DNA of 64,000 nucleotides from a virus. Every line of letters starts with the position of its first letter. Position 1 is the first letter of the stretch. Below the pieces are notes generated by a model that had not been told where the DNA came from, did not search any database, and saw only the letters and a list, made by a program, of their open reading frames with translations. The position numbers and the translations under genes were made by a program. Shown here one piece after another: positions 1,820-63,937 of this stretch. The stretch spans positions 1 through 64,000 of IMG/VR virus record IMGVR_UViG_3300027983_000009; one strand, given 5' to 3'.

Positions 1820-1850
1820 ATTAATCAGGTGGCGATTATTGGAGATATGT

Positions 1851-2030: not shown

Positions 2031-2130
2031 GGCTACAGATCAGCCGGTTGGAGCGAGTGACGTTCCATGTGAAAACGGGTGACCGACAACTCGGTTGCAT
2101 CTAAGTAATATGAAGGGAGAAACGCTGAAT

Positions 2131-3847: not shown

Positions 3848-3882
3848 CAATTTTTACGGGTTAGACCCTGTAGGAGATTTTT

Positions 3883-25908: not shown

Positions 25909-25918
25909 GTTTGGTCAC

Positions 25919-25946
25919 GCCTCTGTAGCGGCTTCATTTCTGCAGA
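25919..25946 (+). repeat. Cas12m-repeat-like pseudoknot motif
   Basis: GCC TC TGTAGC GGC TTCATT TCTGCA GA. Confidence 0.7.
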
Positions 25947-26224: not shown

Positions 26225-26233
26225 TGTTCCAGT

Positions 26234-26261
26234 GCCTGTGCAGGGGCCTCGTATCTGTAAA
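26234..26261 (+). repeat. Cas12m-repeat-like pseudoknot motif (a decayed sister copy is at 25486-25513)
   Basis: GCC TG TGCAGG GGC CTCGTA TCTGTA AA. Confidence 0.7.
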
Positions 26262-26277
26262 TGGGGAGAAGGGCGAT

Positions 26278-29694: not shown

Positions 29695-30070
29695 GCTCTC
29701 ACATATACGCTCTCACATATACTCTCTCACAGCACATTTTGACAACAATCCCAGCCTTGCGGGTTCGTAGCAGGATAACAGGGGGCCAAAGTATACAGCT
29801 CCTCACATATACTCTCTCACGTATACGCTCTCACAGCAATCCCAGCCAGGCGGGTTCATAGCACGGCAACTGCACAAGTCCTCACATATACTCTCTCACA
29901 ACAATCCCAGCTCTGCGGGTTCGAAGCAAGGCATGAACAGGGTTGTCACAGTGCACAATTCCTCACATATACGCTCTCACAGCAATCCCAGCCAGGCGGG
30001 TTCATAGCACGGCAGCACAGTCCAGGATCCACAATAACAATCCCAGCCTTGCGGGTTCGAAGCAGGGCAT
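29695..30070 (+). CRISPR. Degenerate CRISPR-like mini-array: 5 Cas12m-type pseudoknot repeats with interspersed CTCACATATAC(G/T)CTCTCAC motifs
   Basis: CAATCCCAGCyNNGCGGGTTCrwAGCA at 29746, 29837, 29902, 29983, 30038 with unique intervening segments. Confidence 0.5.
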
Positions 30071-30105
30071 CGCGTGCAGCCGGACAAACAAGCACAGGAG
30101 AAAAC

Positions 30106-34500: not shown

Positions 34501-34623
34501 GTTGCTGGCTGTGTGACTGGTAAGATGGTTACGATGGGTGTCCCATCTACCATCATGACGTGCGAGCAGGCTCAGCTGTGGCTTGCTGGCGACAAAAAGT
34601 TCAATCTGATAGCAGCTACATGA
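31585..34623 (+). CDS. DUF6745-like protein with large internal (QVxx/DQV) repeat expansion
   Basis: N-term KLTQEQ...WLEIGL...DSP; C-term GSHDVGWLSYY...CGWW...GRLHNETG..RYRDGFGVW; ~730 aa of periodic repeats. Confidence 0.75.
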   Translation: MKQVKLEKLTQEQIAQLPLHTEKWLEIGLSCEPCDFEKAKAAAIECYVAAGLEPPKLFLLFDSPIAAAMGAVALQSIASDQGMERLQHQLRNKILAKAWAQVSDQVGAKVRDHVKGQVGDRIVYQIWQTVRDSLTAQVGDRVDAQVSEQVTEQVGKQIRNQLAEQVLAQLDNQVSAQVSSMINDRVTWSVRDMVNGGVSDMIREQVTWPVRDMVNEEVSDQVRNQLTDQVLEPVGDAIHSQVSELLREQIWEQVRDQIWGRIDTQIRDHIREQVGDDISEQIWEAGNATLAVRDQLLRPVQDQAWEVAQEAIAHTPGEKVSDQVQVKVLGQIWGKLCEELSSEVLDQVMNHVVEPVEPVMSQIRDRIREQVGEQAQDQASAGVRIQVDAHVRYGVTEPVGEQVGTRVWGQVWAEANNQVSNQVAAQISELISGQVGEHVWGKVRGPVSAQVRESVGEQIQEQAWKQASEQTLEEVGDQVSEPLSEPVRGMIRDHVLGQVIDQIHEQISETVRRVILGQVSGQVREQVWEQIRMRVSGQVGEQVRDTVSGQVHELVSETTMEQVGDQVWGRVMNTVGAQARAGGQNQDSTWDRVQVKVLETVADTVREQVLNQLNDQVLEQVGMPVLAQIQNQAREQVGGQVSDQVSDRVSDQVSDEVRAEVSARVRNSIWDQVMEQVRHQVDADVRDLVGGQIQEQTSGQVRNQVWAQTWDKAWESINATIREKISEQVREQLKDPVRTQVWDQLRSPIWGQVRDQVGEPAMEQVVDQVSNKVSDQVNTAIMDQVRGQARKQTQEQTPEQLREQLLNKVSDQVFGSHDVGWLSYYAFFREHCGLTEATDKLSGLLELAKNCGWWAPYKGVCIFQHRHSELHRDEAGRLHNETGMACRYRDGFGVWSLHGILVDEQIVMRPETQTVAQINEETNQDIRSIRITRFGWARYIEESGAVCVHSMINQISNTPEALYRLADNSQRLVAGCVTGKMVTMGVPSTIMTCEQAQLWLAGDKKFNLIAAT

Positions 34624-35083: not shown

Positions 35084-35174
35084 TTGCTCATAAGCAGCAA
35101 GGTCCACTCTGTGCAGCCGGCTCATTGCGAGCCGGCTGCAGCAGGTGGCGGACAAAAAGAGAAGGGAGCGATAA

Positions 35175-35435
35175 GTGGAGGAACCCAGCAGCTTCAAACC
35201 AGTCGGTAGCAACCACATCGACGGCTACGGCAACCAGTGCGGCAACGGCTCCGGCTATGGCAACGGATACGGCTATGGCAACGTCTACGGCTATGGCAAC
35301 GGATACGGCTACGCCAGCGCCTACGCCAACGTCTACGCCAGCGGTTGCGGCAACGGCAGCTGTTCCGGTTACGGCGACGGCAACGGTTTCGGCAACGGCA
35401 GCAGCACAGTGTCGACATCTACCAGACGACGGTAA
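35175..35435 (+). CDS. Gly/Tyr/Asn-rich mini-protein, cassette 1
   Basis: SSFKPVG...TVSTSTRRR. Confidence 0.55.
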   Translation: MEEPSSFKPVGSNHIDGYGNQCGNGSGYGNGYGYGNVYGYGNGYGYASAYANVYASGCGNGSCSGYGDGNGFGNGSSTVSTSTRRR

Positions 35436-35454
35436 CAGGAAGCAGGAAGGTAAA

Positions 35455-35751
35455 ATGCGCAGCTTAAAACTAGTAGGCTACAGCTTAGGCTACGATCCAA
35501 GTTACGGCAACGGCAATGGCAATGGCTACGGCTATGGCAACGGCCACGGCAACAGCAACGGCTGCGACTACGGTAGCGGCTACGGTACCGGCAGCTGTTC
35601 CGGTTACGGCAACGGTTACAGCTATGGCAACCAATACGGCTCCGGCTCAGGCCCCGGCTCTGGCTTCGGGAACGGTTACAACGGCTACAGCAACGGCGAC
35701 GGCGGCGGTTACGGCGACACCACCATCTCAACGACTACCAGAAGACGGTAG
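35455..35751 (+). CDS. Gly-rich mini-protein, cassette 2
   Basis: MRSLKLVG...TISTTTRRR; GGAAGG RBS. Confidence 0.6.
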   Translation: MRSLKLVGYSLGYDPSYGNGNGNGYGYGNGHGNSNGCDYGSGYGTGSCSGYGNGYSYGNQYGSGSGPGSGFGNGYNGYSNGDGGGYGDTTISTTTRRR

Positions 35752-35771
35752 CAGAAAGCAGGAAGGTAAAA

Positions 35772-36068
35772 ATGAGTAGTGTAAAACCAGTAGGTGGCGG
35801 TATTCGTTACGGTAGCGGACAAGGTTACGGCGCCGGTTACAGCTTCGTCAACGGTAACGGCCACGGCTTCGGCTTCGGCAACAGCTGCAACCGCGGTACC
35901 GGCAATGGTTACATTAGCGGCCGCAGCTTCAGCAACGGCTACGGCAGCGGCTACAGTAACGGCGACGGCGACGGTTATGGCGACGGCAACGAGCGAGGCG
36001 GCCACAGTTACGGCGACGGCTACGGCTATGGCAACGGCACAGTCTCAACAGTTACCAGAAGACGGTAG
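35772..36068 (+). CDS. Gly-rich mini-protein, cassette 3
   Basis: MSSVKPVG...TVSTVTRRR. Confidence 0.6.
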   Translation: MSSVKPVGGGIRYGSGQGYGAGYSFVNGNGHGFGFGNSCNRGTGNGYISGRSFSNGYGSGYSNGDGDGYGDGNERGGHSYGDGYGYGNGTVSTVTRRR

Positions 36069-36088
36069 CAGGAAGCAGAGAGGTAAAA

Positions 36089-36415
36089 ATGAGCAGTGTA
36101 AAACTAGTAGGTGGCGGCCTCCGTTACGGCGGAGGCCGCAGTTCCGGGCAGAACAGTGGCTGTGGTAGCGGCTGTGGCTACGGTGACAGCTACGGCTGTG
36201 CCAGCGGCAGCGGTAGTGGCAGTGGTTACGGCAGCTACGGCAGCGACGGCGGCGGAGGCTACGGCGAAGGCTACTGCAACGGCAGCGGCGCTGGCAACGG
36301 CGCCGGTTACCGTGGAGGAAACGGCGGCGGCTACGGTAACGGTACCGACAACAGCTTCGGCAACGGCTTCGGTCATGGCATCAGCACAATCTCAACAGCC
36401 ACCAGAAGACGTTAA
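36089..36415 (+). CDS. Gly-rich mini-protein, cassette 4
   Basis: MSSVKLVG...TISTATRRR. Confidence 0.6.
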   Translation: MSSVKLVGGGLRYGGGRSSGQNSGCGSGCGYGDSYGCASGSGSGSGYGSYGSDGGGGYGEGYCNGSGAGNGAGYRGGNGGGYGNGTDNSFGNGFGHGISTISTATRRR

Positions 36416-36435
36416 TAGGAAGCAGGAAGGTAAAA

Positions 36436-36723
36436 ATGAGCAGCTTAAAACTAGTAGGTAGCGGCCACGGCCTGGGTTACGGCTTCGGCAACGGCTTCGG
36501 ATTCGGATACGGTTACAGCACCGGATACGGTAACGGCTTCGGCTTCGGCTTTGGCTTCGGCAACAACGGTCGATACGGCAGCACCAACGGCTCCGGCTCC
36601 GGTTCTGGCACTGGCTCCGGCGACTGCGACAGCTACAGCAGCAACGGCAACGGCTACAGCAGGAACGGCTTCGGCAACGGCAACGGTAACGGCACAGTGT
36701 CGACCTCTACCAGAAGACGATAA
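36436..36723 (+). CDS. Gly-rich mini-protein, cassette 5
   Basis: MSSLKLVG...TVSTSTRRR. Confidence 0.6.
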   Translation: MSSLKLVGSGHGLGYGFGNGFGFGYGYSTGYGNGFGFGFGFGNNGRYGSTNGSGSGSGTGSGDCDSYSSNGNGYSRNGFGNGNGNGTVSTSTRRR

Positions 36724-36749
36724 TGTGTAGCAGGGTGTAAAGGGTGTAA

Positions 36750-36767
36750 TCGGTTATTGATAACCGA
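36750..36767. promoter_or_regulatory. Palindromic operator-like site (GTTATnnATAAC family)
   Basis: TCGGTTATTGATAACCGA. Confidence 0.55.
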
Positions 36768-36838
36768 GCTCATAGAGAGCTGACTCATTGTGAGGCAGCG
36801 ACAGTAAGTGGTAAGCAATAATCAGAAAAAGAAACAGA

Positions 36839-37162
36839 ATGATCGATCAGACAGTAGTGATCAACGGTGTTAAGTATGTCCGAGAAGACTCAGTTCCAGT
36901 ACCACGACCGACTGGAAGCAGGGCTGTAGTTGTGGTGGATCGCGGGTGGATCTTCGCTGGGGATGCTCGGCGGGAGGACGGCAGGATCTTCCTGAGCAGA
37001 GCGATCCTTGTCTTCAAATGGGAAGAAGTTGGGTTCGACGGGATGCTCTCAAATCCGCTGTCGACTAAAGTATTCCTGCGACCGCTGCAGAATGATGTCG
37101 AGATCCCGGCAGGGTCGGAGATTTGCTCCGTTCCGGTATCGGAAAACTGGGGGCTGAAGTGA
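36839..37162 (+). CDS. DUF6948-like small beta protein
   Basis: INGVKYVRED...VVVVDRGWIFAG...L..A..V..W. Confidence 0.5.
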   Translation: MIDQTVVINGVKYVREDSVPVPRPTGSRAVVVVDRGWIFAGDARREDGRIFLSRAILVFKWEEVGFDGMLSNPLSTKVFLRPLQNDVEIPAGSEICSVPVSENWGLK

Positions 37163-37368
37163 GCCCAGCCCCGAGCGGCAACACCTTGAAACTTGTAGGC
37201 TACAGCTTAGGCCACTGTTACGGCGCCGGCTACGGTTACGGCAGCGGCAACAGCTACGGCTATGGCTACGGCTATGGCAGCGGCTATGGCAGCGGATTCG
37301 GCAGCGTCTATGCCAGCGGTGACGGTTTCGGCAACGACAGGCAATCAAACAGGAGGACTCAGTGGTAG
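37159..37368 (+). CDS. Gly-rich mini-protein, cassette 6
   Basis: LKLVGYSLG...GYGYG; GTGA overlap. Confidence 0.5.
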   Translation: MSPAPSGNTLKLVGYSLGHCYGAGYGYGSGNSYGYGYGYGSGYGSGFGSVYASGDGFGNDRQSNRRTQW

Positions 37369-38702
37369 TAGAGCAGCACCAAGAATCAGGCAAAACCGAA
37401 CCAGCGGATCTGGTAACAATCACGATCAGCCGAGTTGTGGCACGTTGGCTGGATCTACATCTCCAGCAACAATTCAAAATGCACGGGTTCCGACCGCACG
37501 ATCCGGTACCTCCAGAGGTAGCGGTGGTGGGGCAGGCTGTACAGGAGGCGATGGAGCCCACACCAGCTTTCGCAGGTTTCTCACACGGTTCAGATGTTAA
37601 TGTTTCGTGGGAAGAAGCCATCGTACTTGCGGGGATGTGCCGTCGAGCTCATAAGCAAGCGGGGATAGAGCTGGAAGCCATGCGATCAACCGACCCGGAT
37701 CGGCGACTGCTGCCAGAAAGTTTACGCGACGCGCCGCTAGAAGAGCTGCGTGATCAGGTTAACCCGTGGTGCAGCAGGTGTATGTTGCTGGAGCATCTGG
37801 TCAAGGTATTCACAGACGCAGTACCAGATAGTTACACGGATCGATTCAAGAGTGCGGGTGATCACCTAACGATCACACCACAACCCACTCTGCTGGATCC
37901 TATCATGCGAAGAATGATAGCTGCTGAGGATAGCAGGATATTAGCTTCTATTGCGGCTCCTGCCGCTGGCTCGGAGGATGTGGCCCGCAGGGAGCGGCAG
38001 AAACTACATCGCGAGCCGGATAACCTAATCTACTTCCAGTAGTAGTTCTGCAAACAGTGGAGACTAGATAAAGGAGCTAGAAGTGAAGAAAAAAGGTAAG
38101 GCTGCAGTTATCCGGCAGCGGTGGTCGTGTGTCCCGCGATGGGTGACTCGACAGATATCTGGACTACGGCAGATCGGCCGAATCGACCCATACTACGAAG
38201 TCCATCGCTGCGCGGTGTCTATTCGCATGCTAGCGCAGGAGCTTGATGACAAACACGAGTTTAGTCGACTGATGGATCATTGGGGTAGTTGCGGCGATGT
38301 GTTTTACTGTGAGCCGTACTGGACGAAGGTCGAGGTGAAACCAATCGCAGACAGGCTTTCCAGGTTGCTGTGCTGCTCGTGGAGATTCGCTAAGCCTAGA
38401 TGGAATGACTCGACAATTCGTGTCGAGTTCTATAGGTCACCAGAGGATCAGCTGCCGCTCAGCGGGTTGCGGCGGCAGCAGGTTTTTGCGGATATCGTCT
38501 CCCCAGCTATCGAGGCGAAAATTAAGGCATATATGGATACACCGTACAGGAAGCATAAGCGACTCGAAGATCTAAGAGTGATCACCACTACAAAGGTCTG
38601 GGTGCGGGTAAGGAAGATGCTTGGAGTTCCGATGTTTTGACCGGCAACCAGGTAATTGCGTCGTAGTTGGTTATGAATAACGAACCTTTGACCCGATAGT
38701 AT

Positions 38703-42370: not shown

Positions 42371-43891
42371 AGATCTGCGATAACTGTAGGCTGGAGAAAA
42401 ACATACTTATCCTACTAGACAGCGAGTTTGGCGGCGGAGGTGTGGAGCTGTGTGTGCACTGCCACGACAAGCTGGCGAAGCAGGTCGAGAAGATAAATAG
42501 CCGATTGGCAGCAATTCGGGACAGGGCTCGGCAGCGGGCCTTCAAAGAGTTAATGAGTGAGAACCCTCTACCTATCCGGGTTCAGCGAGCCCGGTGGGCT
42601 ATCACAGCGTTACTGTTGACTCTGTTTAGCTCCTCCACAAAGGGCGAACCGTGAGCACAGGGAAGCAGATGTGTGATCGCGAGCAAACGCCACTTTACTC
42701 GATAGGTACGTGGGATACGCACAGACAGGCCTTCACGCCGCATCGGGGGCTGTCTGTGCCGTCTTTCAACATTACTATCCTCCAGTTGAGGGTAGCTATG
42801 CGGGAGCTGCAAGAGACGGGCTATAGGTGCCACAGGTACCGAGGCCTAAACGGCGGAGAGGAGGACAATGACACGAGTGTGCTCATTGAAAGAACAGACG
42901 GGCAACCCTGGCGGGATATCCGTCGGGGTTGGAACAGATAACGAGCACCTAACACGCGAAGGGTTGAGAATTATGATGCTTGAAGAGGGTAAATACTACA
43001 AGAGCAGAGATGGGTATATAGTAGGCCCGGTAAGGCTAAGACTGCCGGTCGAGCGATATACTACTTTCCCATTCACGAGCCAGCTCGGAATAACGTACAC
43101 GAATAACGGGGTGGTTTATCGCACGCACGAGACAGGCGACGATTTGGTAAGCACGTGGGACCCTGTTGTGGCTCTAGCAGCACAGGCAGCACCGGTAGCA
43201 CCGGTAGCACCCGTTTCAGACAGTTGTGCGATCACGGGCATACCGTGGGTAGACTGGTTTAATCTGCAGAGCGATACCGATAGGCGGGTGATTGCGATAG
43301 AAGCACTTGCGGAGCTGCTCAGCCAGGCCACAATACTTGTCCGCACAGTTGGGGATACTGATGAAGTGGAATCTCTGTGTTGGGACAGCGGCGGAGAGAG
43401 TTTGAGTATACCCCTCTAGAGTGGTGAGTATGTTTGGTTATTCTGCAGAAATGAAGCCGCTGCAGAGGCATGCCTACCACTGTACGCTGAACTTGAGGCA
43501 GGTCAACTTCACAGGTAAAAAATTGTGTAACAGCACCACGGAATTACGAGATAACGAGAAACAGAGGGGACTAGACATGCAGATTTTTGGATCAAAACTC
43601 TGGCGGTTCTTTGGCGGAGAGAGGATTGAGGATGGGTTCAGACAGCTGTCCGACAGCATTATCAGTAACCGCAAGTTGATTTCAGAACTGCGCACAGAGA
43701 TCCTGTTGTTGCAGCGGAGAGTGTGGGCATTAGAATCGCACACTATTGAGGAGTCCGTGGCAGAGTGCGAGAAGAAGCTTGCGTCGTTTGAGGCGAGTGT
43801 AATAGCGTGGGCACCGATAGCACCAGATGAGCCGGACGCGCCGGATGTGGCAGTTGAGCCGGACGCGCCGGATGTGGCAGTTGAGCCGTGA
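42367..43891 (+). other. Four hypothetical CDS (42367-42654 CxxC, 42651-42941, 42973-43419, 43577-43891)
   Basis: Overlapping start/stop codons, RBSs. Confidence 0.5.
43442..43530 (-). promoter_or_regulatory. Antisense sigma70-type promoter + pseudoknot repeat cassette (copy 1)
   Basis: Minus strand: AT tract, TTGACC-16-TACAGT, 9 nt, GCC TC TGCAGC GGC TTCATT TCTGCA GA. Confidence 0.65.
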
Positions 43892-43939
43892 CAGTTTCCT
43901 CACACCAGCAACTCAAGGAGTGCCGCCATCAAAAATCTA

Positions 43940-44461
43940 GTGTTAATGTTCACTTTGTTTGATCCTGCGAAGCACATGTTCTCCGTACTGAGGTTGGAGA
44001 AAGAGCTGGCCCCGTATCCGCTACCGCAACACGAGATTCTGGCTATGCACAGGTGTTCCAACATAATGCATATGGTGATCGAGGCGGATCATGGGGTGAT
44101 CGGTCACTATGCGTTGCTATTCGCCAAGAAGAAGCAACCAGAGCTGTTACTGATTGCGATCACAGCCGAGTACCAGCGAAGGGGTATTGGGGCGGCTGTG
44201 TTGCACAGGATCGTGCTGCGTACTCTTCTGGGTAGGCAGAAGGGGGAGGACCTGATTGTCCGTGTGGCTGAGATCAACACACCTGCGCAACTCTTTTTCA
44301 GTAAGTGTGGGCTAAAGTGTGTGAGCATGGTCCCAGAATACTATCCCAGCGGTGAGACAGCCTACAGTTTCAGGGGGGACGCGTTGGGTATTGTGGGCAA
44401 CACGGTAGATAGGCTGCCGGAAGGCTACCCCAAGGAGCGAAGCAGCCGGGTGTCTGGCTGA
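43940..44461 (+). CDS. GNAT (RimI-like) acetyltransferase
   Basis: IAITAEYQRRGIG; VAEINTPAQLFFSKCG; EYYPSGETAY. Confidence 0.8.
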   Translation: MLMFTLFDPAKHMFSVLRLEKELAPYPLPQHEILAMHRCSNIMHMVIEADHGVIGHYALLFAKKKQPELLLIAITAEYQRRGIGAAVLHRIVLRTLLGRQKGEDLIVRVAEINTPAQLFFSKCGLKCVSMVPEYYPSGETAYSFRGDALGIVGNTVDRLPEGYPKERSSRVSG

Positions 44462-44505
44462 GGCAGGATCCAAAAACAGAAAGTAGACAAAGTGGGGCAA
44501 GAACA

Positions 44506-44970
44506 GTGCGGATTGGCAGAAGGGTTACAGGGCTGCCCTGTTTGAGTGTGCTCTCAATTCCTGTGAAGCAGGTAGTTGCACCGAAAGAAACTGAGCAGCC
44601 AGCGGAGAGCTTAGCGACGGCCAGTGAAGACTGGGCTGAACTAACCGACCCGTTGCACCTTCTGCGGGTAGATGTAGACTGGGTGCTCGAACCTACCGAC
44701 ACGGGCGAGCGACCAGAGCCGTGGGTAGTGGTTACATCGGTGTTGGAGGGTTATTGCCTAGGCAACATGCGAAAAGACCTCAAGTTCCGGTGCCTGCATA
44801 AAGACTTACCATTACCACTTCGAAAAATTGTGCTAACCAAGTGGCTCGTAGAGCACCCGGACTTGCGGTATACCGTGCAGTTTAGCACCTGCAGGCCAAC
44901 CCCTAGACGACATTACATCCGTATTACAGCAATCGGTACAGAGACAGTGGAGATACCACAATCAAAGTAA
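44506..44970 (+). CDS. Hypothetical protein
   Basis: ORF. Confidence 0.45.
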   Translation: MRIGRRVTGLPCLSVLSIPVKQVVAPKETEQPAESLATASEDWAELTDPLHLLRVDVDWVLEPTDTGERPEPWVVVTSVLEGYCLGNMRKDLKFRCLHKDLPLPLRKIVLTKWLVEHPDLRYTVQFSTCRPTPRRHYIRITAIGTETVEIPQSK

Positions 44971-45027
44971 GGACCTGCATTGTGTAGGTACCTGCAGTAA
45001 ACAATTAATTCGCAGAGAGGCAGAGAG

Positions 45028-45277
45028 ATGACTCGTGAGACTATGAGACTGCAGCTGACAGCTGCAGCACTTGAGCGGCTAATAGGCGAGGATGTAGAGC
45101 TCGAGCTGGAGCTCAAAAATTGACCGGAAGGTGCGAGACGCTGTAGCACTAGCTACCCGTGCGATGGTAGACACAGCTGTTGCCGCAGCGGTCAAAGTAG
45201 CAGTAGAAGAAGCGCAGAAGTCGATGCCTCCGATCCAGCTGAAACTGGTTCAAGAAAACACCGTAACTACAAGCTAA
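45028..45277 (+). pseudogene. Frameshifted small gene
   Basis: MTRETMRL...LELK stops at 45121; +1 frame continues IDRKVRDAV...TTS*; shift at A5 run 45115-45119. Confidence 0.45.
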
Positions 45278-45299
45278 CAGAAACAGTGGAGATACCCCT

Positions 45300-46436
45300 A
45301 TGATTGATGAGGCGGCACCAGATACACCCTATGTCAGAGCAATCCAGAAAAGGTTGGAGTTGCTCCAGCATATGCTAGGCGCCACCAGCCAGAAGAGACC
45401 AGCAACGTGGGGTGAGAGAAATTACTTCTGTGCCGAGATAGGCAGCGAAGACCACACTGTGCTGGTCAGTATGGTTGAAGAGGATCTCGTGCAGGCTGGC
45501 GGCACTATCAACGAGGGTACCGACCAGTATTTTTTCGCCACCAGGGCGGGGGCGCAAGCCATAGGGATGAGCAAAGCTGCTATCGGCAGAATGATCGATC
45601 GGCAGAGGGCGAGGACTAAGGCCCGGCAGGACGCTGCCGCTGTTGCAGCCGCTGTCGCTGCAGCTGCTGAGGGTAGTGTAGAGCCCACTGAGGGCGACGC
45701 TGTGTAACTCAGATACTTATTTTTCGCGGGAGCAGAGATGCCAATTTACAGGGTTATAGTACGCACGATGTTCGAGATTGATGCAGAGTCAGAACACGCA
45801 GCTAGAGTGCAGGCGTTTGAGGCTGCCGATAACTGTCTGGAGGAGACCCACGACACATTCCAACGATGTCGAAAGCGTGACCAGTTGTACGGACGCATCC
45901 ACAGCGCCAATGACGGCAATCGTACGCTGTGCGGATTACCGATGGACGAGCGGTGGTGGATCCTGACCACAGACGGCAAACACGCTCCAGAGTGTGACCA
46001 GTGTGCCGTATACGGACTAACAGAGAGCAGCAAATAGGAGACGATGATGTTCAAAGTAATGATCAACCCGAAGCCGGAAGAGCAAGGCACCGGCATCACC
46101 AGTGTGCGAAGGTGGGAAGACCCGGAGGTACTGGACAGCCTGCGTAAACTGTTCGACATGACCAGCAACGAAGTTCTGCTACAGCTGGAGATCAGCAAGG
46201 CAGGCATCGTAGGGAGGTTTGGTCGCACCGCGGTTACGCCCAAACAGAAAGACAGCTGGATCTACACCAGCGAAAAGATGCCCCAACCGGGCGAGCGTGT
46301 GCTGGGTATGACTGAAGATGGTATGTGGGCTGTGGTAATATGGACGACCAAGTACGTACCTATGCTGTACGTGCCGTCTGTTGACACTACCACGCAGTGT
46401 AAACCAGTCGTGAAATGGAAACGCGTAACACTATAG
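45300..46436 (+). other. Three hypothetical CDS (45300-45707, 45738-46037 Zn-binding, 46044-46436 with DUF551-like C-terminus)
   Basis: RBS-preceded ORFs; WIYTSEKMP motif. Confidence 0.55.
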
Positions 46437-46494
46437 TGTCCGCGTTGTGACTCTGGTTATTAGTAACAGACACTACAACTGAAAGAGAGTATAC

Positions 46495-46815
46495 ATGACC
46501 ACAGAATTGCCGAAGTACGTTTGTCACAAAGAGGTGCGAGCGCTAAAGATCGCAAGAGTGGCGAAGCACGCTCACTCAGACCCTAACGTAGATGACGCGA
46601 CGTTTGAGGCGTCATCTGTATTCCAGGGGGCGCACCTGATGCCGGAGCGAAAGGACTTCCTGCCGGTCCCGGTCGACCCAGCGTGGTATCGGAAACACAA
46701 ACCGTCAGGTGAGGGCTACTACGTTGTGTACGCTGACGGTTACACGTCGTGGTCACCGGTTGAGGCGTTTGAGCAGGGTTACGTATTGGCAGATGAGCCG
46801 AAGACAGGAGAATGA
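46495..46815 (+). CDS. Conserved phage protein (YYVVYADGYTSWSP..AFE.GY family)
   Basis: Y.CHK.V.A.KI N-terminus and GY.SWSP motif. Confidence 0.65.
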   Translation: MTTELPKYVCHKEVRALKIARVAKHAHSDPNVDDATFEASSVFQGAHLMPERKDFLPVPVDPAWYRKHKPSGEGYYVVYADGYTSWSPVEAFEQGYVLADEPKTGE

Positions 46816-47346
46816 CCGTGAGCAGCGACTCTACGTGCCCATACTGTCAGCAGGATGGTATGGTCACAGAGTCAATGTCTGAAGACGAGGAGGTCGAGGT
46901 AGAGTGTGGAGGTTGCAGTGAGACGTTCATAGTCACAGCCTCGGTTCGTGTGCTGTATAATGTATCCTGTGCACCGGGTAAGCACGACCTGCGGCCAAAC
47001 AAAAAACACGACGGCTGGTACAACTGCAGCAAATGTGACTCATTCTTGAATGAGGTGATCCACCAAGACGAGTTCACCAAACCAGCCAGCTAGGTAGCGT
47101 ATTTTAACGCAGCGGAGTAGACCCGTGTACGAAGAACGGAGAAGACCTATGCATATCGATGAGGTGCAGGCAGACGTGGATGACGTCACCAAAGCTGCAA
47201 ATGAGCTTGTAGAGCACCTGACCACCGCGGAGTGTTGTGAGACTATAGAGGACCTTCAGGTGAACCTCGAGAATGCTGTGCGTACAGCTGGCGAGATTCA
47301 GGCAGCCGCAAAGAGGCTGCATAAATTGGCAATGCGACTACGGTAG
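46812..47346 (+). other. Two CDS: Zn-ribbon protein (46812-47093) and coiled-coil protein (47149-47346)
   Basis: CPYC/CGGC/CSKC; RBS. Confidence 0.5.
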
Positions 47347-47371
47347 TCGCGAGCGTGATAGTGTTTAGTAT

Positions 47372-47419
47372 GCCTACTTGGGGGCTTCGTATCCAAGCTG
47401 CTCCGGTTGAAAGGGATGT
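47372..47419 (+). ncRNA. Pseudoknot repeat + candidate self-targeting guide (47400-47419)
   Basis: GCC TA CTTGGG GGC TTCGTA TCCAAG CT, then GCTCCGGTTGAAAGGGATGT, matching 47541-47560 (17/20) behind TTT. Confidence 0.55.
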
Positions 47420-47426
47420 GGCTACT

Positions 47427-47726
47427 ATGTCTAAATCATCTGAAGCTCTACAGCGTGCGTTCATAGCAGACCCCGGAGCTATCCGGTCGCTGATGTTGAA
47501 CAGAGCGCCGTGCAATGCGGCTCTGGTTGACCATGAATTTGTTCCGGTTGAAAGAGATATGTGTATGCCGGGGGCGCATTTCACAATCAGCGCTATTGGG
47601 CTGGTCAACGCAGTACTTGCAGCGAACGGCCTGCCGCTGGTTGCAGGTATGTGGGAGGATGGCGAAAAGGTAGGGTGTGACAATTTTGTAGGGTTCTGTG
47701 AGTGCACACCAACTGTAGAGATCTAA
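47427..47726 (+). CDS. Hypothetical protein (contains the candidate protospacer)
   Basis: MSKSSEALQRAF.ADP...CN..LVDH...IGLVNAV. Confidence 0.6.
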   Translation: MSKSSEALQRAFIADPGAIRSLMLNRAPCNAALVDHEFVPVERDMCMPGAHFTISAIGLVNAVLAANGLPLVAGMWEDGEKVGCDNFVGFCECTPTVEI

Positions 47727-48248
47727 TCTAAGGAGGTGAGCCGTGGATGCAGATAACCTAATAGCGAGAGCCAGAAGGCAGCAAGTTGTCGGCAATGGCA
47801 AGGCGCAGATTGCGGCCCTCGTGTACGAACTGGAGATGCGGGAGGCTCAGGTGGGCGGTATGACAATCCGCTTGCATGAAGCTGAGTCACAGTTAGCGAA
47901 CTACATCAAACTTATTAAGGAAGGCGCAGCTAGGCGTCTTAAGCAAGGGGGTGTATAATGTTCAATAGACACAATAATATGGATGGGATGGCGGCACTAG
48001 CCAGTTCCGGTTGGGGTGGTGTTACTTCGTGTGGATATCCCAGTGATAGTGCGGGTTACTGCGAGTAGGGCTACCCAAGACGGGTTGCCAGCCCAGCTCG
48101 TTGTTGTGTTTCCGCAAGGTAGGCTGTGTGTCGAGGATATGAGTGGCGACTGGCAAGCTGTGCGGACCCCGCCAAAGATGTTGAAGACAGTCGCGATGAG
48201 AGAGCAAGCAGCGGTAAGCCCCGTAGCAAACACCAGACAGGAGTAGAT

Positions 48249-48608
48249 GTGGGAGAATTTGAAAAGTCAAAACTGCCAGTAACCTTCGAAGAGTGGGCCA
48301 CACACCCCAGACCCAAACCGCTAGACGCAGACGCCCTGGAGCTGTGGCTAGCTGCGCAGGGGCGTTGTAAACCGTGCCCATTTTGCGGCACAAGCCGTAC
48401 GCTAGTGTCTAGCGAGCTGAACGCTCAGACTAATATTTACATCACACACATTGCCTGCAGTAACTTCAAGTGCTTCGTTGTAGTAGCAGGTAATTCGAGA
48501 TACAGCCGATTGCAGGCACAGCAGGAGGCGTTTAACAAGTGGCAACGCAGACCGGCAGGAGTAACAGAAACAGGAGACAATAACCCACCCCTCAAGCAGC
48601 TACCGTAG
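48249..48608 (+). CDS. Lar-family (restriction alleviation-like) Zn-ribbon protein
   Basis: KPCPFCG...CSNFKC...AFNKWQRR. Confidence 0.55.
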   Translation: MGEFEKSKLPVTFEEWATHPRPKPLDADALELWLAAQGRCKPCPFCGTSRTLVSSELNAQTNIYITHIACSNFKCFVVVAGNSRYSRLQAQQEAFNKWQRRPAGVTETGDNNPPLKQLP

Positions 48609-48639
48609 CTGCTTTCATTATTAATAACCAACTTTACAT

Positions 48640-48667
48640 GCCGTTGCAGAGGCTTCGTGGCTGCGAG
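48640..48667 (+). repeat. Cas12m-repeat-like pseudoknot motif
   Basis: GCC GT TGCAGA GGC TTCGTG GCTGCG AG; operator-like ATTATTAATAAC at 48617-48628. Confidence 0.65.
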
Positions 48668-48682
48668 AGAGGGTAGTGAACA

Positions 48683-49678
48683 ATGACAAAAAACCAGCAA
48701 TCTCTACCTGTGGGCGAGCGTCGGGTTCGTTGGGTAGCAGCTGAACGAGATGACTCTTCGTTCGTAACGGAGTACAGGCTTATCGTTGGCAAGCTTATTA
48801 GACGCGGCAAGATGCGGTGTGTAGCGACAGTCTGGGTTAAACCGGAATGCAACTATGCAACGTGGCACACGTGGGACATTCAAGGGACAGGTGGCGAGAA
48901 TAGTGTTGAGTACGCCGACAGCTGCGAGGCAGCTACGCTGCAGGCTAAAGGTATGGCGTCATTAGCGGCAATTACTCAGGGTTTCGTGTAGGTAATCAGC
49001 AGGAGAGTAATATGACAGAGCCGTGCTATATGTTGAAGATAGCAGACAGGCTGACAGGGCATGCGCACTGTGGAGCGAGCGACGCAGAGGCTGCGGCAGA
49101 CATCATCAGACAGGTGCACGGTATTCTGGTGCAGGTGCGGCAGCAGTATTTACTCCCGACAGAGGCCGGATACCGTGGAGGGCTGAGTCAGGAAGTGCGA
49201 GCACAGATCATGACACTACTTTGAAGAGGAGCAGAGAGAAGTGAAGAAACAGAAAGCAGCACTAACTGAGGCGCAGCAACCACCAAAAACACTACGCGAC
49301 TTAAAGGTCGGTGACAGCGTGTTTGTTGTGCATCAGCGTGGGAGGTGGGATCCTGCAGAGTATAGGACAGCGGTTGCCACTGTGGTAAAGGTGGGTAGGT
49401 TGTACGCATACATTGAGCAGGGTGTGTACAGTGACCTGTCACCGTTCTGTCGCGACACTGGGTCTAGCGTCCACCCGGGTGATGGTAATGTGAGATCTAA
49501 TAACCGCGGGTTTGATGTGCACCTGTCACAGCAAGGCTACCATGAATCCGGGCAGAGAAGCGCGGAGATGGCCAGGCTGACCAGACGGATCATCGCGAGG
49601 ATGGGTGATCTGATACAGCTACCGCCAGAAGTTGTGACAGCGATACACAAGCTGTTGGACGACGCCAAGCTGGATTAG
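48683..49678 (+). other. Three hypothetical CDS (48683-48991, 49012-49224, 49241-49678 SH3-like 'LKVGDSV..VVKVGR')
   Basis: RBS-preceded ORFs. Confidence 0.55.
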
Positions 49679-49691
49679 CAACCCAGCCAAT

Positions 49692-49769
49692 GTGTAGTGC
49701 CGCTGCAGAGGCGTAATATCTGCAGAGCCCAGAATATGGTGACAACCCTGCCGACGTTCGGCGGGGTTG
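49692..49769 (+). ncRNA. Repeat + 16-nt segment + hairpin immediately upstream of cas12m
   Basis: GTGTAGT GCC GC TGCAGA GGC GTAATA TCTGCA GA; 12-bp hairpin 49743-49769. Confidence 0.55.
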
Positions 49770-49809
49770 GCAGCAAGCAGCAAACATCAAACAGAGAGCA
49801 GGAATCAGA

Positions 49810-59204: not shown

Positions 59205-59968
59205 TGTCAGACTCTGCAGTATTCGTAACGCAGCTCCTGGGATTGCAGGTAGTGCAAGCCGGGCTGCTTGAGTGTGCCCACAGCAGCGGTCCGCCGGTAG
59301 GTCAGACTGCTGACGGCCCTGTTGTGGGATTATTCCGTGTGCGGAGAGAGCTGGATGTGTCTCCGCAGGTTCAGAAGATTGCGGAGTCTGTATTGGACGG
59401 GGATAAGGATATCCGTATCGGCGGAATCCGCATTGTGATACCGGTTAGCAGGCAATACGTGTTTGCTACACCGCTGCCAGTATTCGTAGCAGCGGTAGGT
59501 ACTGAGTTCAACGTATCGATTAGTAAGCTGGAGCTGATCCGGGACGAGCAAACCTCACAACCTGCGATCCTGGTTACGACAGCTTCCAGCATCAAGCCAG
59601 ACTTGGTTGTGGTGCTGGCGGTGTTGCCGGAAAATAAACCGGATACTGAGCCGTCGGGTTTTGATATCTCACTGATCACCACCAAGTTGCTGCAAACCAA
59701 CCGTGTCCCTGCGCAGCATACTGCTGCAATCATTAAAGCGACCCAGCACGCCTGGCGGACAGGGATGGCAACCCAAACAGCTTCGAGGATGCTGCCCAAG
59801 ACAGGCAAGAAGGCATCACAGCACCAGCTTGAGGCTGCGGCTCGAGAGATAGTGAAACAGCTGGTAGATCAGCAGGTTGTCACGATGGGCCTATTTTTCT
59901 GGATGCGGCTGGGTTATTGGCTTCTCACTATTATCATGCTCCTTCTGGAGCAACCAGACAGCGACTAG
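59204..59968 (+). CDS. Hypothetical protein with C-terminal TM segment
   Basis: TAATG overlap. Confidence 0.55.
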   Translation: MSDSAVFVTQLLGLQVVQAGLLECAHSSGPPVGQTADGPVVGLFRVRRELDVSPQVQKIAESVLDGDKDIRIGGIRIVIPVSRQYVFATPLPVFVAAVGTEFNVSISKLELIRDEQTSQPAILVTTASSIKPDLVVVLAVLPENKPDTEPSGFDISLITTKLLQTNRVPAQHTAAIIKATQHAWRTGMATQTASRMLPKTGKKASQHQLEAAAREIVKQLVDQQVVTMGLFFWMRLGYWLLTIIMLLLEQPDSD

Positions 59969-60011
59969 ACCGTTGTGGTCTTGCAGTCGTTTTTGTTTTT
60001 TTGGCTGTTAC

Positions 60012-60079
60012 GCCTCTGCAGAGGCTTCGTGTCTGCAGCTGAAGAAATGAAGCCTCTGCAGAGGCTTTGTGTCTGCAGA
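60012..60079 (+). repeat. Two tandem pseudoknot repeats (60012, 60052)
   Basis: GCC TC TGCAGA GGC TTyGTG TCTGCA x2, 40-nt period. Confidence 0.7.
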
Positions 60080-60142
60080 GGCAGAGATACTGCGCCTGCG
60101 AATGGTGCATCATCAGTTCACTGTAGCTATGTAGGGAGTAAC

Positions 60143-61189
60143 ATGCAGCCACGACTGGACCGTATAGGTGATATCACCAGAGCAGCTGTCACGCAGCTGT
60201 TTATGCAACTGCTCAACCCGCAGCGGCGATACAGAGTGGCAGAGTTTGACTTTACTACGTACGACATTGCTAAGCCTGTAGTAGAGGCTGCGCAGTTCAT
60301 GCTATCTCAAACACTGACTCCGACAGAGATCGATACTGTGCGTAAGAAGTCAGTAGAGCTGTGGAAGAGATATGTGAGCATGACCGGAGTGGCTGAGTGG
60401 TGCGGAGAAGGAGCTGACGGCTCTACCCCGGAGAAGCTGATGATGCGGTGGGCTACAGACGCCCAGCAGCTGCTGGAAGCTGGCACACGCGAAGACTTAG
60501 CGGAAGCTAAGACGCACATGACACTGATACAGAACACGATTAAAGAGCTACAGCAGCAACGTGGTATTTCGGGCACACCAGTCAGCAGGCCACCAGCTAT
60601 ACAGCAGAGAAAGAGGAAGTAGTGTGAGCAGGCTTGTGCAACTACAGTCGGTGATTGGAGACTAAGCTATGTTAGCGTACGGAGCTAGAGTTATTGAGTT
60701 CATGGACGGCCCATTACAGGGCGAGTTTCACGAAGTAGAGAACGGCTTCCCGTGCCCGGATAGGATGTCCGTACCAGATGCGACAGCGAAGTGGGAATAC
60801 ATATACGACATAGATAGCAGTACAGGCAGAGCGACCTTCGTCAGCGAGGGTGTGCGCAGATAGCAGGAGACACAATGAGCGTCAAATACATCCGATACAC
60901 AGACGAGAAAACAGAGCCGGTAGCTCGCAAACCTATCAGCGTAGGTAAAGACCCGGCAGCACAGGGTTTCCTGAGGATGTTTGGTCAGCCGACCAAGCTA
61001 CCAGGTCAGGACGACGAGGGTTACGGCGGCAAGATCACCACAGACAAGATGGTCTACGTCAACCGTAGTGATACTAGCACCAATGGCAACGCTAGAGGCG
61101 GTCGCTGGTACCGCGTGTATGCAACTTGCTACGGCAATGCGACATCCTCTTGGGTGCTCATAGGAAAAACTCGGTACCACTTACGTTGA
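60143..61189 (+). other. Three hypothetical CDS (60143-60622, 60669-60863, 60875-61189)
   Basis: GGAG RBSs. Confidence 0.55.
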
Positions 61190-61218
61190 CCGCAGAGGCA
61201 GCAAACAGGACGTAGCGA

Positions 61219-61307
61219 TCTGCAGAAATGAAGCCTCTGCAGGGGCATGACTAGCACTGTACGCTGAACCTGTGGCGAGTCAACTGCACAGGTAAAAAAT
61301 TGTGTAA
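61219..61307 (-). promoter_or_regulatory. Antisense promoter + pseudoknot repeat cassette (copy 2)
   Basis: TTGACT-16-TACAGT, 9 nt, GCC CC TGCAGA GGC TTCATT TCTGCA GA. Confidence 0.65.
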
Positions 61308-61415
61308 CAGCACCACGGAATTTGAAGAGACAGCAAACAGAAAGCAGGAAAATCATGAAAGACCAGGACTACTACAAAGAGCTCTACCCAGTGATCCTAG
61401 ACCGTTGGTTTTTAC

Positions 61416-61463
61416 GCCTCTGCAGGGGCTTCGTGTCTGCAGCTTACGGCAATGCGACATCCT
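61416..61463 (+). ncRNA. Pseudoknot repeat + segment matching 61129-61148 behind TTG
   Basis: GCC TC TGCAGG GGC TTCGTG TCTGCA GC then TTACGGCAATGCGACATCCT (19/20). Confidence 0.45.
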
Positions 61464-61679
61464 CTTGGGTGCTCATTGGAAACATTCAGTACCACTTACG
61501 TTGACCGCAGAGGCAGCAACAATGGTTACGGGAAATAAGGTGACGGTTAAAGAAGAGCACAAGAAGACCAAACAGCCAGCAGCTGGATACAGTCGACCAC
61601 TTGGGGAGTCTTGTGCTGAGTGCGGGTTAATATTTGGACAGCACCGCCATAATTGCAGTAAACAGAAAGCAGGAAAATC

Positions 61680-62306
61680 ATGAAAGACTGGGACTACTAC
61701 ACCGAAACGGACGTTCGATTTTACGGATTCAAGGAAGAGAGTACTCTGTTTAGTGAGCGATTGCAGGCGATAGACGCAGCAAAACTAACAGCAGAGGAGC
61801 GAGAGACGGCCAAGAGAGAGCTGAAGCCGACGATTCGCCGAGAGTTTCGGGAATTAAATGCTCCGCACAGGGCGGCATTAAGACGCAAGCAAGACGAGTT
61901 CTGGGCAGACGCCCGGGAAGATTTGGGGTATACCGAGACCTTGTCGAAGGAAGCTGTAGCAGCCATGGAGAGCGAAGCCTGGGAGCAGGAGCACTCTGAT
62001 GGTTTCTCTGAAGTGTACATCGCACTGCAAGACTTGTGGGCTGTTGTTGAGGCGGCAGCGGCAGCGGCAGTTAAAGTCGCTACCGTGCCGGCTGAGACGG
62101 CAACCAAAAAACCGGAAAAGAATACGAGACAGATCCGCCAATTGCAAGACCTGACAACAGCGGTGATGATCTCGCTGAATCACAGTTCGTCGCCTAGGGT
62201 CGTTGGGATTGCTAGGGACACTGCTAGCAACACGCCGAATGTACTGCTCGCTACAGCTCAGGATGTACCTATCCGTATTACTGTAGATCTGCAGGTGGGG
62301 CTCTAA
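61680..62306 (+). CDS. Hypothetical protein
   Basis: AGGA RBS; F.AD...LG...AWEQ.HSDG..EV motif. Confidence 0.6.
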   Translation: MKDWDYYTETDVRFYGFKEESTLFSERLQAIDAAKLTAEERETAKRELKPTIRREFRELNAPHRAALRRKQDEFWADAREDLGYTETLSKEAVAAMESEAWEQEHSDGFSEVYIALQDLWAVVEAAAAAAVKVATVPAETATKKPEKNTRQIRQLQDLTTAVMISLNHSSSPRVVGIARDTASNTPNVLLATAQDVPIRITVDLQVGL

Positions 62307-62307
62307 G

Positions 62308-62526
62308 ATGGCCAGATTCACAATCGCAGAGCTGAAGGCTGGTACGTGCAGCATGACAGAGCTGGCTCGCGTGATAGATTTGAAATTGAGTAGATGGCCG
62401 GGGAATTGCGACTTTGTGGCGACGAAGCTGGTAGAGTACGGCCAATTACCGGGCCGCGTAGTGCGAGGTCACTACCATGGCCGAATATCATCTGCAGAAA
62501 TGAAGCCTCTGCAGAGGCATGCCTAG
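62308..62526 (+). pseudogene. Probably truncated gene running into the antisense cassette
   Basis: Last 12 codons are cassette sequence (SAEMKPLQRHA*). Confidence 0.4.
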
Positions 62527-62579
62527 CACTGTACGCTGAACTTGAGGCGAGTCAACTGCACAGGTAAAAAATTGTGTAA
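62491..62579 (-). promoter_or_regulatory. Antisense promoter + pseudoknot repeat cassette (copy 3)
   Basis: TTGACT-16-TACAGT, 9 nt, GCC TC TGCAGA GGC TTCATT TCTGCA GA. Confidence 0.65.
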
Positions 62580-62627
62580 AATCCCCCTAAACGCCTCAAT
62601 AGAGGCTGCTCGAACGAAAGGATAACT

Positions 62628-63937
62628 ATGACCAAGCAGGCGCCAGTATGGTTTGCGTTAATTGGAGGGGCCTATGAGATCTGCATTGCGTGCAGCGAGA
62701 CGCTGGCTGAAATAGAGAGTGCCCAGAAGGATGTTGTGACGGCCACCAGGATCGTCGAGACAACCCGAGAGTACGAGCGTGGTGAGAAAGTCACCCAGTA
62801 CACGTACACTGAAAAAGTGAGCAAACTACAGGCCGAGCCCGACGCCGTACCGAACCCGCCAGAGGAAGGGTAGTAAACTGTGCTGTGCCGTAACCAGCAG
62901 TGCGAAAGACTGCAACCAGATGCAATATACCGAGATGGTATGCTGCACACACCTATCCCCGAGGCTAGACGAGTTACGGGGGTAGTTGCTTATTTTCGGG
63001 AGATTGTTCGTCAGCACCAACAGTCAGCCAAGTGGGGTCGTACGGACTCCGCTGGCAGACTGGTGCACCTCATTTACCCAGATGGAGCCGACACATGAGT
63101 ACAGAGCAGCGATACGCAGAGATCCTCGGGACCAACGTTATCGAGATTCCGACCCACCCGAAGAGGGAGATACCAAGTTGGGTGACCCCCATCAGCAGCA
63201 TGGGGTACATTATGGCGAGACTCGCCGTGGTGCAGCAGCTTATCGCCGCACTGAGGAAACTGTTGCCGGATACAAGTATGGATTACGTTACACCAATCTG
63301 GGTACACCCTATTGATGAGGCCGTGGCCACACCAGAATTCCGACCTGTTGTGTGGGGCAACTGCAGCCATCCACTGTTGGCTATCCCTGATGTCAGGGTA
63401 CTGACGCACCACATACAGAGAGCACCACAATTCCAAGCAGAGATAGCGGCAGTGTACAGCGAGTTGTGGGGGAGCGTGCTGCAGCTAAACTCCGAGGCTT
63501 TTACTCATCGAGACATTGTCGCGGACTGTGTTAAAACAGTTATGTCAATCCGCATGGGCCGCACGCAGGTCAGGCCGGTCAGGTTGTCATCCTCCCGCTG
63601 GGTGTTCGATTGCCACAGTCCCGACCTGGAGTGTCAGTTAACGGAGTTTCTGCTGTTTGCAGTGATCGGAATGTCGCGGGAGATAAATAAGGTAATGCGT
63701 GACAAGCTGCGGTCAGCGGAGCCCGGCGACGTTGCGCATGTCAGCTACGAGGTGCCGCAGCTTGAGTTTCAGCTATCGCAGCACATGTTGTCTATAGTCA
63801 GCACCACCCACCTTGTTGTAGTCGTTGTGCCGGAAGACGTCCCGTCGCCGCTGTATGTGTACGCTCCAGACTCTACGCCAGACGGCACGCTGCATTTCTT
63901 CAGTATCGACGGCAATAGCATCGACTACGACAAGTAG
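62628..63937 (+). other. Three hypothetical CDS (62628-62873, 62880-63098, 63095-63937)
   Basis: RBS and ATGA overlaps. Confidence 0.55.

Follow-up and report, generated by a model that had tools for sequence, protein, structure and literature searches.

Solitary Cas12m-type CRISPR repeats with predicted antisense promoters in a metagenomic phage genome

The locus and its source

The window analysed here comprises the first 64 kb (64,000 nucleotides) of the 82,680-nt IMG/VR virus record IMGVR_UViG_3300027983_000009, which is classed as linear and about 57% complete. It was found to contain three near-identical cassettes, each carrying a predicted promoter followed by one solitary CRISPR repeat on the minus strand, together with a plus-strand gene encoding a homologue of Cas12m. 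The cassettes are interpreted, at about even confidence, as self-promoted solitary units resembling CRISPR RNAs (crRNAs) for the phage's own Cas12m.

The G+C content of the phage was found to be 53.8%. The GC skew was positive across the whole window, and 116 of the 136 open reading frames (ORFs; greedy pick) were located on the plus strand. The DNA runs holding the stretch were freshwater, lake, estuary and microbial-mat metagenomes. No related cultured phage was found among the cultured phages searched, where the UvsX-like protein gave no match and Cas12m gave one distant match. The Rfam and tRNA scans of the window gave no matches.

Anatomy of the three cassettes

The three cassettes and their elements were located as follows.

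43442-43545, minus strand: cassette 1, with an A/T-rich tract, -35 element TTGACC at 43506-43501, -10 element TACAGT at 43484-43479 and repeat at 43477-43442
61219-61322, minus strand: cassette 2, with -35 element TTGACT at 61283-61278, -10 element TACAGT at 61261-61256 and repeat at 61254-61219
62491-62594, minus strand: cassette 3, with -35 element TTGACT at 62555-62550, -10 element TACAGT at 62533-62528 and repeat at 62526-62491

The cassettes were found to be 89-104 nt long and 91-96% identical, and all of them were present in gaps between plus-strand genes. Cassette 1 was located between the stop of gene 42868-43419 and an ATG near 43577, and cassette 2 in the gap 3′ of gene 60875-61189. 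The likeness of cassette 3 to the other copies extended to 62579. The initial annotation had described this copy as truncating ORF 62308; ORF 62308-62526 was found instead to run 36 nt into the cassette and to stop there, giving 72 aa. Repeat finding in the window grouped the three copies as one family (D11). Self-BLAST aligned 43442-43545 with 61219-61322 (91% over 104 nt), 62490-62579 with 61218-61307 (96% over 90 nt) and 62491-62579 with 43442-43530 (94% over 89 nt), in agreement with the near-identity of the copies noticed earlier.

On the minus strand, the aligned block was found to read TTACACAATTTTTTACC...TTGAC(T/C)-16 nt-TACAGT-9 nt-GCC...CTGCAGA. It contained the A/T-rich TTACACAATTTTTTACCTGTG, followed by TTGAC(T/C), 16 nt, TACAGT, 9 nt and GCC-TCTGCAGA-GGC-TTCATT-TCTGCAGA. 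Column homology with the repeat of a related contig (L008) placed the start of the 36-nt repeat 2 nt past TACAGT. The similarity among the cassettes ended exactly on the last base of the repeat, the final A of CTGCAGA, and nothing common was found beyond it. The order of promoter, spacing and pseudoknot, and the unrelatedness of the sequences that follow, had both been read correctly in the initial annotation.

The predicted antisense promoter

The promoter scan returned TTGACT or TTGACC, 16 nt and TACAGT on the minus strand at all three cassettes (9/12 in each). The pattern TTGAC-N16-18-TAnnnT was found to have seven matches in the 82.7 kb, and the only intergenic ones were the three cassettes; the other four were intragenic and no more than chance would give (shuffles had about 2 per strand). 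The 28-nt core of the repeat had seven matches in the window at three or fewer mismatches versus none expected from 100 shuffles. No plus-strand phage promoter motif was found by seven-mer enrichment in the intergenic gaps.

The earlier claim that no credible gene lies downstream on the minus strand was upheld by a codon model trained on the long genes of the phage. The minus-strand ORFs downstream of the cassettes scored -0.14 to -0.18 bits per codon and none was coding by this score, and the plus-strand genes overlapping them scored +0.13 to +0.34.

The alternative that the cassettes act in the other direction, which the initial annotation had itself named, supposes that the 60 conserved nt preceding the repeat serve as plus-strand promoter or operator of the gene starting 35-50 nt beyond each cassette. 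Each cassette does lie just upstream of a plus-strand start codon. However, no plus-strand promoter-like site of at least 9/12 was found inside any cassette by the consensus scan, a strain without cassette 3 keeps gene 62628, and the asymmetry of the repeat family puts these copies on the minus strand. This alternative is considered highly improbable.

The predicted RNAs of cassettes 1, 2 and 3 gave ViennaRNA z-scores of -0.27, -2.72 and -1.25, respectively, from folds that cannot represent pseudoknots. The value for cassette 2 stemmed from pairing with a palindrome-like stretch past the guide. A degenerate terminal repeat, as in a mini-array, was suggested by eye from GCCTCTGC-like bases about 20 nt past the repeat, most clearly in cassette 2. 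This reading was dropped because local alignment of the 70 nt downstream of each cassette gave no second repeat when compared with shuffles (p 0.71, 0.45 and 0.73).

The repeat and the Cas12m of the phage

49810-51801, plus strand: cas12m homologue P0001, 663 aa, matching solved Cas12m chains

P0001 was found to match Protein Data Bank chain 23vw_A (E 3e-44) and the Cas12m2 structures 8hhl/8hio (E 3e-14), and no other TNB-domain match was found in the record. In an alignment with seven homologues (39-50% identity), a His was invariant at the RuvC-I position and WDQDxN was conserved. Such a non-canonical RuvC arrangement is among those found in Cas12m orthologues that bind DNA without cutting it (PMC11013384).

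Twenty-five dispersed copies of the motif were aligned from the window, 21 on the plus strand and four on the minus strand. A 3-bp stem and an 8-bp pseudoknot were found to pair in 85.5% of 275 cells, with 57 double-sided changes; this level was reached in none of 500 shuffles, and slid registers gave 33-46%. The layout agrees with the Cas12m2 scaffold, which is described as 36 nt long with a stem and pseudoknot and a disordered stretch in its first 7 nt (PMC10442227), and which ends beside the guide.

A covariance model (R1) was built solely from these 25 copies. It recovered its seeds and one new copy at 26226-26265, and found no copies in 64001-82680. In L008, which encodes a Cas12m 47% identical to P0001, the model found nine repeats with a 72-nt period directly 3′ of cas12m (35-38 bits), and it also found arrays in L011, L022 and L025-L031. 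From its covariation and this company, the repeat is judged to be a genuine type V-M (Cas12m) CRISPR repeat. Because the model finds regular arrays beside cas12m in relatives, the elements of the window are Cas12m CRISPR repeats that have turned solitary and dispersed.

Searches for closer relatives gave no matches with P0001 alone or with the flanking 208-aa protein as query, and the exact repeat pattern gave none in the viral_contigs collection. Two contigs with a Cas12m 98-99% identical (L020, L021) were found to span only about 47.3-54.8 kb in window coordinates.

A solitary repeat was also observed just upstream of cas12m in the window (49691-49730) and in three relatives (L008, 9905-9979; L025, 184-223; L026, 7527-7566), which otherwise keep normal arrays downstream of cas12m. 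In L008, the bases past this repeat cover the ribosome site and start codon of cas12m. By its position, the upstream repeat could be an autoregulatory crRNA-like unit.

Distribution of the promoter among the repeat copies

With the copy added by the model, 26 copies were counted, 22 on the plus strand and four on the minus strand. A promoter of at least 9/12 ending 9 nt before the stem was present in three of the 26, that is, in three of the four minus-strand copies and in none of the 22 on the plus strand; of 3000 random positions, 22 scored as high. Plus-strand copies can ride on gene transcripts and antisense copies cannot, so a private promoter on the antisense copies is functionally sensible. 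Two copies without a promoter were of further interest.

60038-60073, minus strand: fourth minus-strand copy, without promoter, in head-to-head fusion with plus-strand copies at 60012 and 60052 via a common palindrome
25911-25946, plus strand: copy of the same repeat subtype (loop TTCATTT), without promoter, just 3′ of a terminator-like hairpin

The first of these looks, from its arrangement, like a rearrangement scar, and it lends weight to the possibility that the cassettes are non-functional by-products. A single leader-plus-repeat fragment would then have been inverted or captured once and spread by repeat-mediated copying or by selfish copying of the miniature inverted-repeat transposable element (MITE) kind, and the promoter match would be fortuitous. 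All three cassettes are recent paralogues (91-96%), and the positions that vary among them do not significantly avoid the promoter hexamers, although the differences are too few to test. On the other hand, a 9/12 promoter with an A/T-rich tract placed for a start at the handle is rare, as the random positions show. A diverged copy in run X6 keeps TTGACC at the same spacing while its other upstream sequence differs, and extra copies with other flanks occur in the runs of four studies. A by-product origin is regarded as rather improbable.

Many plus-strand copies between 38703 and 55983 of the window (for example 38703, 48640, 52100, 53433 and 55956) were found to end 5-25 nt before the ribosome-binding site and start codon of the next gene. 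The 'guide' of such a copy would be the translation start region of that gene, and this placement hints at mRNA processing or translational control by Cas12m. At 29742-30073, 20 kb from cas12m, five repeats of a CCC/GGG-stem subtype were present at irregular spacing (91, 65, 81 and 55 nt), interleaved with a second CTCACATATAC-type repeat in an atypical mini-array.

Variation between strains

Contigs from four DNA runs (X1, X4, X6 and X9) were compared with positions 43200-63000. The contigs of X1 and X4 were about 99% identical or better, and those of X6 (estuary) and X9 (lake) represented a relative with many substitutions.

The search for empty sites suggested in the initial annotation was answered at cassette 3. 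One contig each in X6 and X9 was found to join 62490 to 62576, with at least 255 nt matched per side and no common letters at the joint, where other letters may intervene. The 85 nt skipped (62491-62575) correspond to cassette 3; they begin with the final repeat base and stop four bases before the similarity to the other cassettes ends. Both contigs keep all 20 bases of the putative guide (62471-62490), so at this site the guide is resident DNA and it is the cassette that varies. In the minus-strand direction, the empty site contained TTAC directly before the guide-matching bases and no target-site duplication. If the joint is clean, ORF 62308 of the cassette-less strains would end four codons past it, at 65 aa versus 72 aa. 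Since a strain skips exactly cassette 3 and keeps the adjoining guide DNA, the cassette is, as far as the contigs tell, a discrete and polymorphic module. The initial annotation had gone further and proposed portable units that acquire new guides by relocating. A discrete unit beside unrelated DNA, with pre-existing local DNA as the guide of cassette 3, agrees with this proposal; the acquisition of guides by relocation does not follow, as neither a transposase in the 82.7 kb nor a target-site duplication at the one empty site was found.

At cassette 1, positions 43427-43594 were found to be replaced by 88 other letters in X6 and X9, a change that takes away the cassette together with 15 of the 20 guide bases and the beginning of the following gene. 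In both, cassette 2 was kept, and its repeat borders other DNA in one X6 contig, where 61041 is joined to 61217. The segment 61335-61659, flanked by two 46-nt direct repeats, was missing from X6 and X9. Additional contigs in X1, X4, X6 and X9 diverged exactly at the repeat ends 61219 and 62490, pointing to more copies with other flanks, and one X6 contig diverged at 62547 yet kept TTGACC 16 nt before TACAGT.

Ten of the 15 strain joints were found at or near a repeat end or cassette (43426, 47366, 47397, 47398, 48656, 49723, 53667, 55005, 61217 and 62490), which makes the repeats the main sites of structural change between strains. The region from 60 to 62.6 kb was a patchwork of short duplications. 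These two observations agree with modules like the PeSL elements, in which a strong host-type promoter and a stem-loop are placed in a plastic accessory region. Such modules would serve recombination between copies (gene shuffling) and antisense interference with, or insulation from, plus-strand read-through, and the Cas12m repeat would be incidental. In T4-type phages, cassettes of a sigma-70-like promoter and a stem-loop mark hyperplastic regions and the indel borders of close strains (PMC2839356). However, PeSLs face a gene with a Shine-Dalgarno site and a start codon and the cassettes face none; in place of a simple G/C hairpin, they carry a covarying Cas12m pseudoknot. Recombination at repeats also leaves the restriction of the promoter to antisense copies unexplained. 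This explanation is thought to be quite unlikely.

In one X1 contig, 49723, where the repeat preceding cas12m ends, was joined to 54425, so that 4.7 kb including cas12m were absent; the joint is weak, with 21 nt on its short side. If it is real, some genomes of the source sample would be without the effector.

Putative guides and their matches

The 20 nt following each cassette on the minus strand were taken as putative guides.

43422-43441, minus strand: putative guide 1, ATAACCAAACATACTCACCA, antisense to the first bases past the stop of gene 42868-43419
61199-61218, minus strand: putative guide 2, TCGCTACGTCCTGTTTGCTG, antisense to 3′ untranslated bases of gene 60875-61189
62471-62490, minus strand: putative guide 3, TGATATTCGGCCATGGTAGT, local DNA kept in cassette-less strains

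The three 20-mers were found to be mutually unrelated. Exact matches in viral_contigs numbered 0, 0 and 1 for guides 1, 2 and 3, respectively, and about 0.1 chance matches are expected per 20-mer on a rough estimate of the size of the collection. The sole outside match was that of guide 3 at 3288-3307 of L044, a viral contig of 34.6% GC with otherwise no similarity to the phage. L044 contained a 1015-aa primase/helicase-like ORF at 1457-4504 on the minus strand, and the guide match lay in another reading frame of it. The match was preceded by ATT, and none of the other 25 guides matched L044. In view of the unrelated low-GC contig, the other frame, the preceding ATT and the silence of the other guides, the match is probably due to chance. 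With own-genome matches at background level as well (see below), the role of these 20-mers as guides, as proposed in the initial annotation, found no support in viral_contigs or in the 82.7 kb of the 57%-complete record.

A spacer of L022 was found to resemble the sequence between the -35 and -10 elements of the cassettes (18 nt, 94%, E 0.075 in 327 kb); it matched at its end distal to the protospacer-adjacent motif (PAM) only and was not counted. Two plus-strand guides had near matches within the phage, 47400-47416 at 47541-47557 and 61444-61460 at 61129-61145, preceded by TTT and TTG with 2 and 1 mismatches in 17, respectively. Both are rarer than in the null of random 17-mers, and the second derives from a local 88-nt duplication.

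Other features of the window

The window also contained highly repetitive proteins: a 1012-aa ORF at 31585-34623 built of repeats with a 12-nt period, and downstream of it, at 35100-37400, tandem units of about 317 nt encoding Gly/Tyr-rich small ORFs.

Interpretation of the cassettes

On the favoured reading, each cassette would by itself suffice to transcribe one solitary Cas12m CRISPR repeat. Lying on the strand opposite to the phage genes, it would need a sigma-70-type promoter of its own, and a predicted one is carried by all three. Transcription would start 5-9 nt past TACAGT. This corresponds to positions 4-8 of the 36-nt repeat, immediately ahead of the stem, and hardly any 5′ processing of the primary transcript, if any, would then be required. 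Elongation would carry the transcript across the stem and pseudoknot handle and on into the DNA that happens to border the repeat. The product, a crRNA-like RNA of the Cas12m handle and about 17-20 nt of local sequence, would be loaded by the phage's own Cas12m of the DNA-binding, non-cutting type. The unit of about 85-104 nt has been copied to at least three intergenic sites and is present or absent between strains. The anatomy of the cassettes, the identity of the repeat, the presence of cas12m, the confinement of the promoter to minus-strand copies and the sharp borders of the polymorphism were read directly; transcription, loading and any targeting are predicted from them. Within this reading, guide-dependent targeting is the weaker half.

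Several observations weigh against the reading. The -10 element matches the consensus at only 4 of 6 positions, and recognition by sigma-70 is an assumption. None of the 13 listed runs holding the stretch is RNA. The repeat hairpin is followed by UUCAUUUCU, a possible transcript end before any guide, which the scan flagged in cassette 3 only. In the 82.7 kb of the record, the first 17 nt of the guides had best non-self matches at 3, 4 and 3 mismatches, which is the background level of 400 random 17-mers (116 at 3 mismatches and 224 at 4; mode 3-4). At their own loci, the guides follow the end of the repeat (..AGA) and not TTN, the PAM reported for GoCas12m (PMC11013384). The replacement of 15 of the 20 guide bases of cassette 1 in X6 and X9 means that the guide is not always conserved flanking DNA. 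Finally, since the three copies are recent paralogues, the coincidence of promoter and antisense orientation approximates to a single evolutionary event that was then copied.

Some of these points also fit an RNA of which only the handle matters, with uninformative flanks, that titrates or regulates Cas12m. It could be a decoy against a Cas12m of the host or of a rival, in the manner of the RNA anti-CRISPRs (Racrs), or it could act on the Cas12m of the phage itself, as a sponge or timer. Solitary repeat units (SRUs) just downstream of a predicted promoter are known from phages, and one of them is an RNA anti-CRISPR (PMC10651486). The three guides are without found targets, and transcription could stop prematurely at the hairpin and U-rich tract within the repeat. 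However, each of the hairpins of cassettes 1 and 2 has a mismatch, which makes them poor terminators, and the similarity stops exactly where a guide would start, as in real arrays. Racrs mimic host repeats, usually without cas genes, and here the phage encodes the matching Cas12m. Among one genome each of 185,579 species, the repeat pattern gave no matches and a single Cas12m relative was found, distant (27%) and in a metagenome-assembled genome; there is thus no sign of a host array that the cassette RNAs would mimic. This explanation is considered unlikely, though it deserves to be taken seriously.

A bolder extension of the favoured reading, offered as a speculation with little probability attached, is that the cassette is a minimal non-autonomous 'guide gene' of promoter and Cas12m handle that takes its guide from its landing site. 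A phage could thereby direct its binding-only Cas12m with no need of Cas1-Cas2, aiming it either at the cassette-less alleles of relatives that infect the same cell, in a selfish logic like that of TnpB, or at its own genes, in a genome-wide, repeat-distributed regulatory network.

If the cassette RNAs are expressed and loaded, they would represent a CRISPR effector programmed by the position of a repeat and not by spacer acquisition. If the cassettes are decoys or recombination modules, they would still show a way in which an array of a virus can become dissolved in its genome.

Comparison with known systems

No description of solitary self-promoted repeats serving a phage's own Cas12m was found among the papers listed in the literature searches. 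Until now, solitary repeats of phages have been interpreted as decoys against the CRISPR systems of hosts; here the phage keeps the effector and its repeats are scattered singly. The cassettes resemble the SRUs and Racrs (PMC10651486) in being solitary viral repeats directly preceded by a predicted promoter. Those units mimic host repeats and are described as not cas-linked, whereas the repeat described here belongs to the phage's own Cas12m, is present in about 26 dispersed copies with the promoter only on antisense ones, and had no host repeat match in the genomes searched.

The crlRNA/CreR regulatory RNAs (bioRxiv 10.1101/2024.12.27.630466) likewise consist of a solitary unit like a repeat, and the sequence next to it directs a Cas effector towards repression of transcription and not cutting. 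They are described as having partial promoter matches next to a PAM, whereas none were found for the three guides. The PeSLs of T4-type phages (PMC2839356) resemble the cassettes in their repeated sigma-70-like promoter and stem-loop, A/T-rich upstream tract, plastic region and strain indel borders; they are described as driving a downstream gene, and the cassettes face away from all genes and contain a handle for Cas12m.

The initial annotation had drawn an analogy with TnpB. In how the guide is defined, the analogy stands and is closer than Cas1-Cas2 adaptation: in the TnpB/IscB omega-RNA systems of IS200/IS605 elements the guide is the DNA abutting the end of the element, which was seen here at cassette 3 only. 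The one empty site seen was also without target-site duplication, and its TTAC before the guide-matching bases is a target of IS608. The analogy fails in other respects. The RNA gene does not overlap or abut the 3′ end of the nuclease gene, the cassettes lying 6.3 kb upstream and 9.4-10.7 kb downstream of cas12m; the RNA contains a 36-nt crRNA repeat and not a long omega-RNA; cassettes 1 and 2 have upstream borders that do not agree with one common end; and no Y1 transposase (PF01797) was found in the 82.7 kb of the incomplete record, the control genomes being positive. Membership of IS200/IS605 is not claimed, because of the missing transposase, the position of the RNA gene and the inconsistent left end.

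The nearest likeness in effector and repeat is to the type V-M Cas12m arrays (PMC10442227, PMC11013384, bioRxiv 10.64898/2026.09.14.751636), which share a homologous effector, a 36-nt repeat with stem and pseudoknot, a guide 3′ of the repeat with no trans-activating crRNA (tracrRNA) needed, and a RuvC variant of the binding-only kind. A preprint of 2026 claims the first phage Cas12m, with an adjacent array (bioRxiv 10.64898/2026.09.14.751636). Unlike these systems, and unlike the relatives L008, L011, L022 and L025-L031 with their ordinary 72-nt-period arrays beside cas12m, the phage described here contains no regular repeat-spacer array; each cassette contains one repeat, its own predicted promoter and resident phage DNA in the place of a spacer. 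If the favoured reading is true, the cassettes would form a natural bridge between the logic of TnpB omega-RNAs and that of crRNA arrays, and a compact design for a guide unit made of a promoter and a handle.

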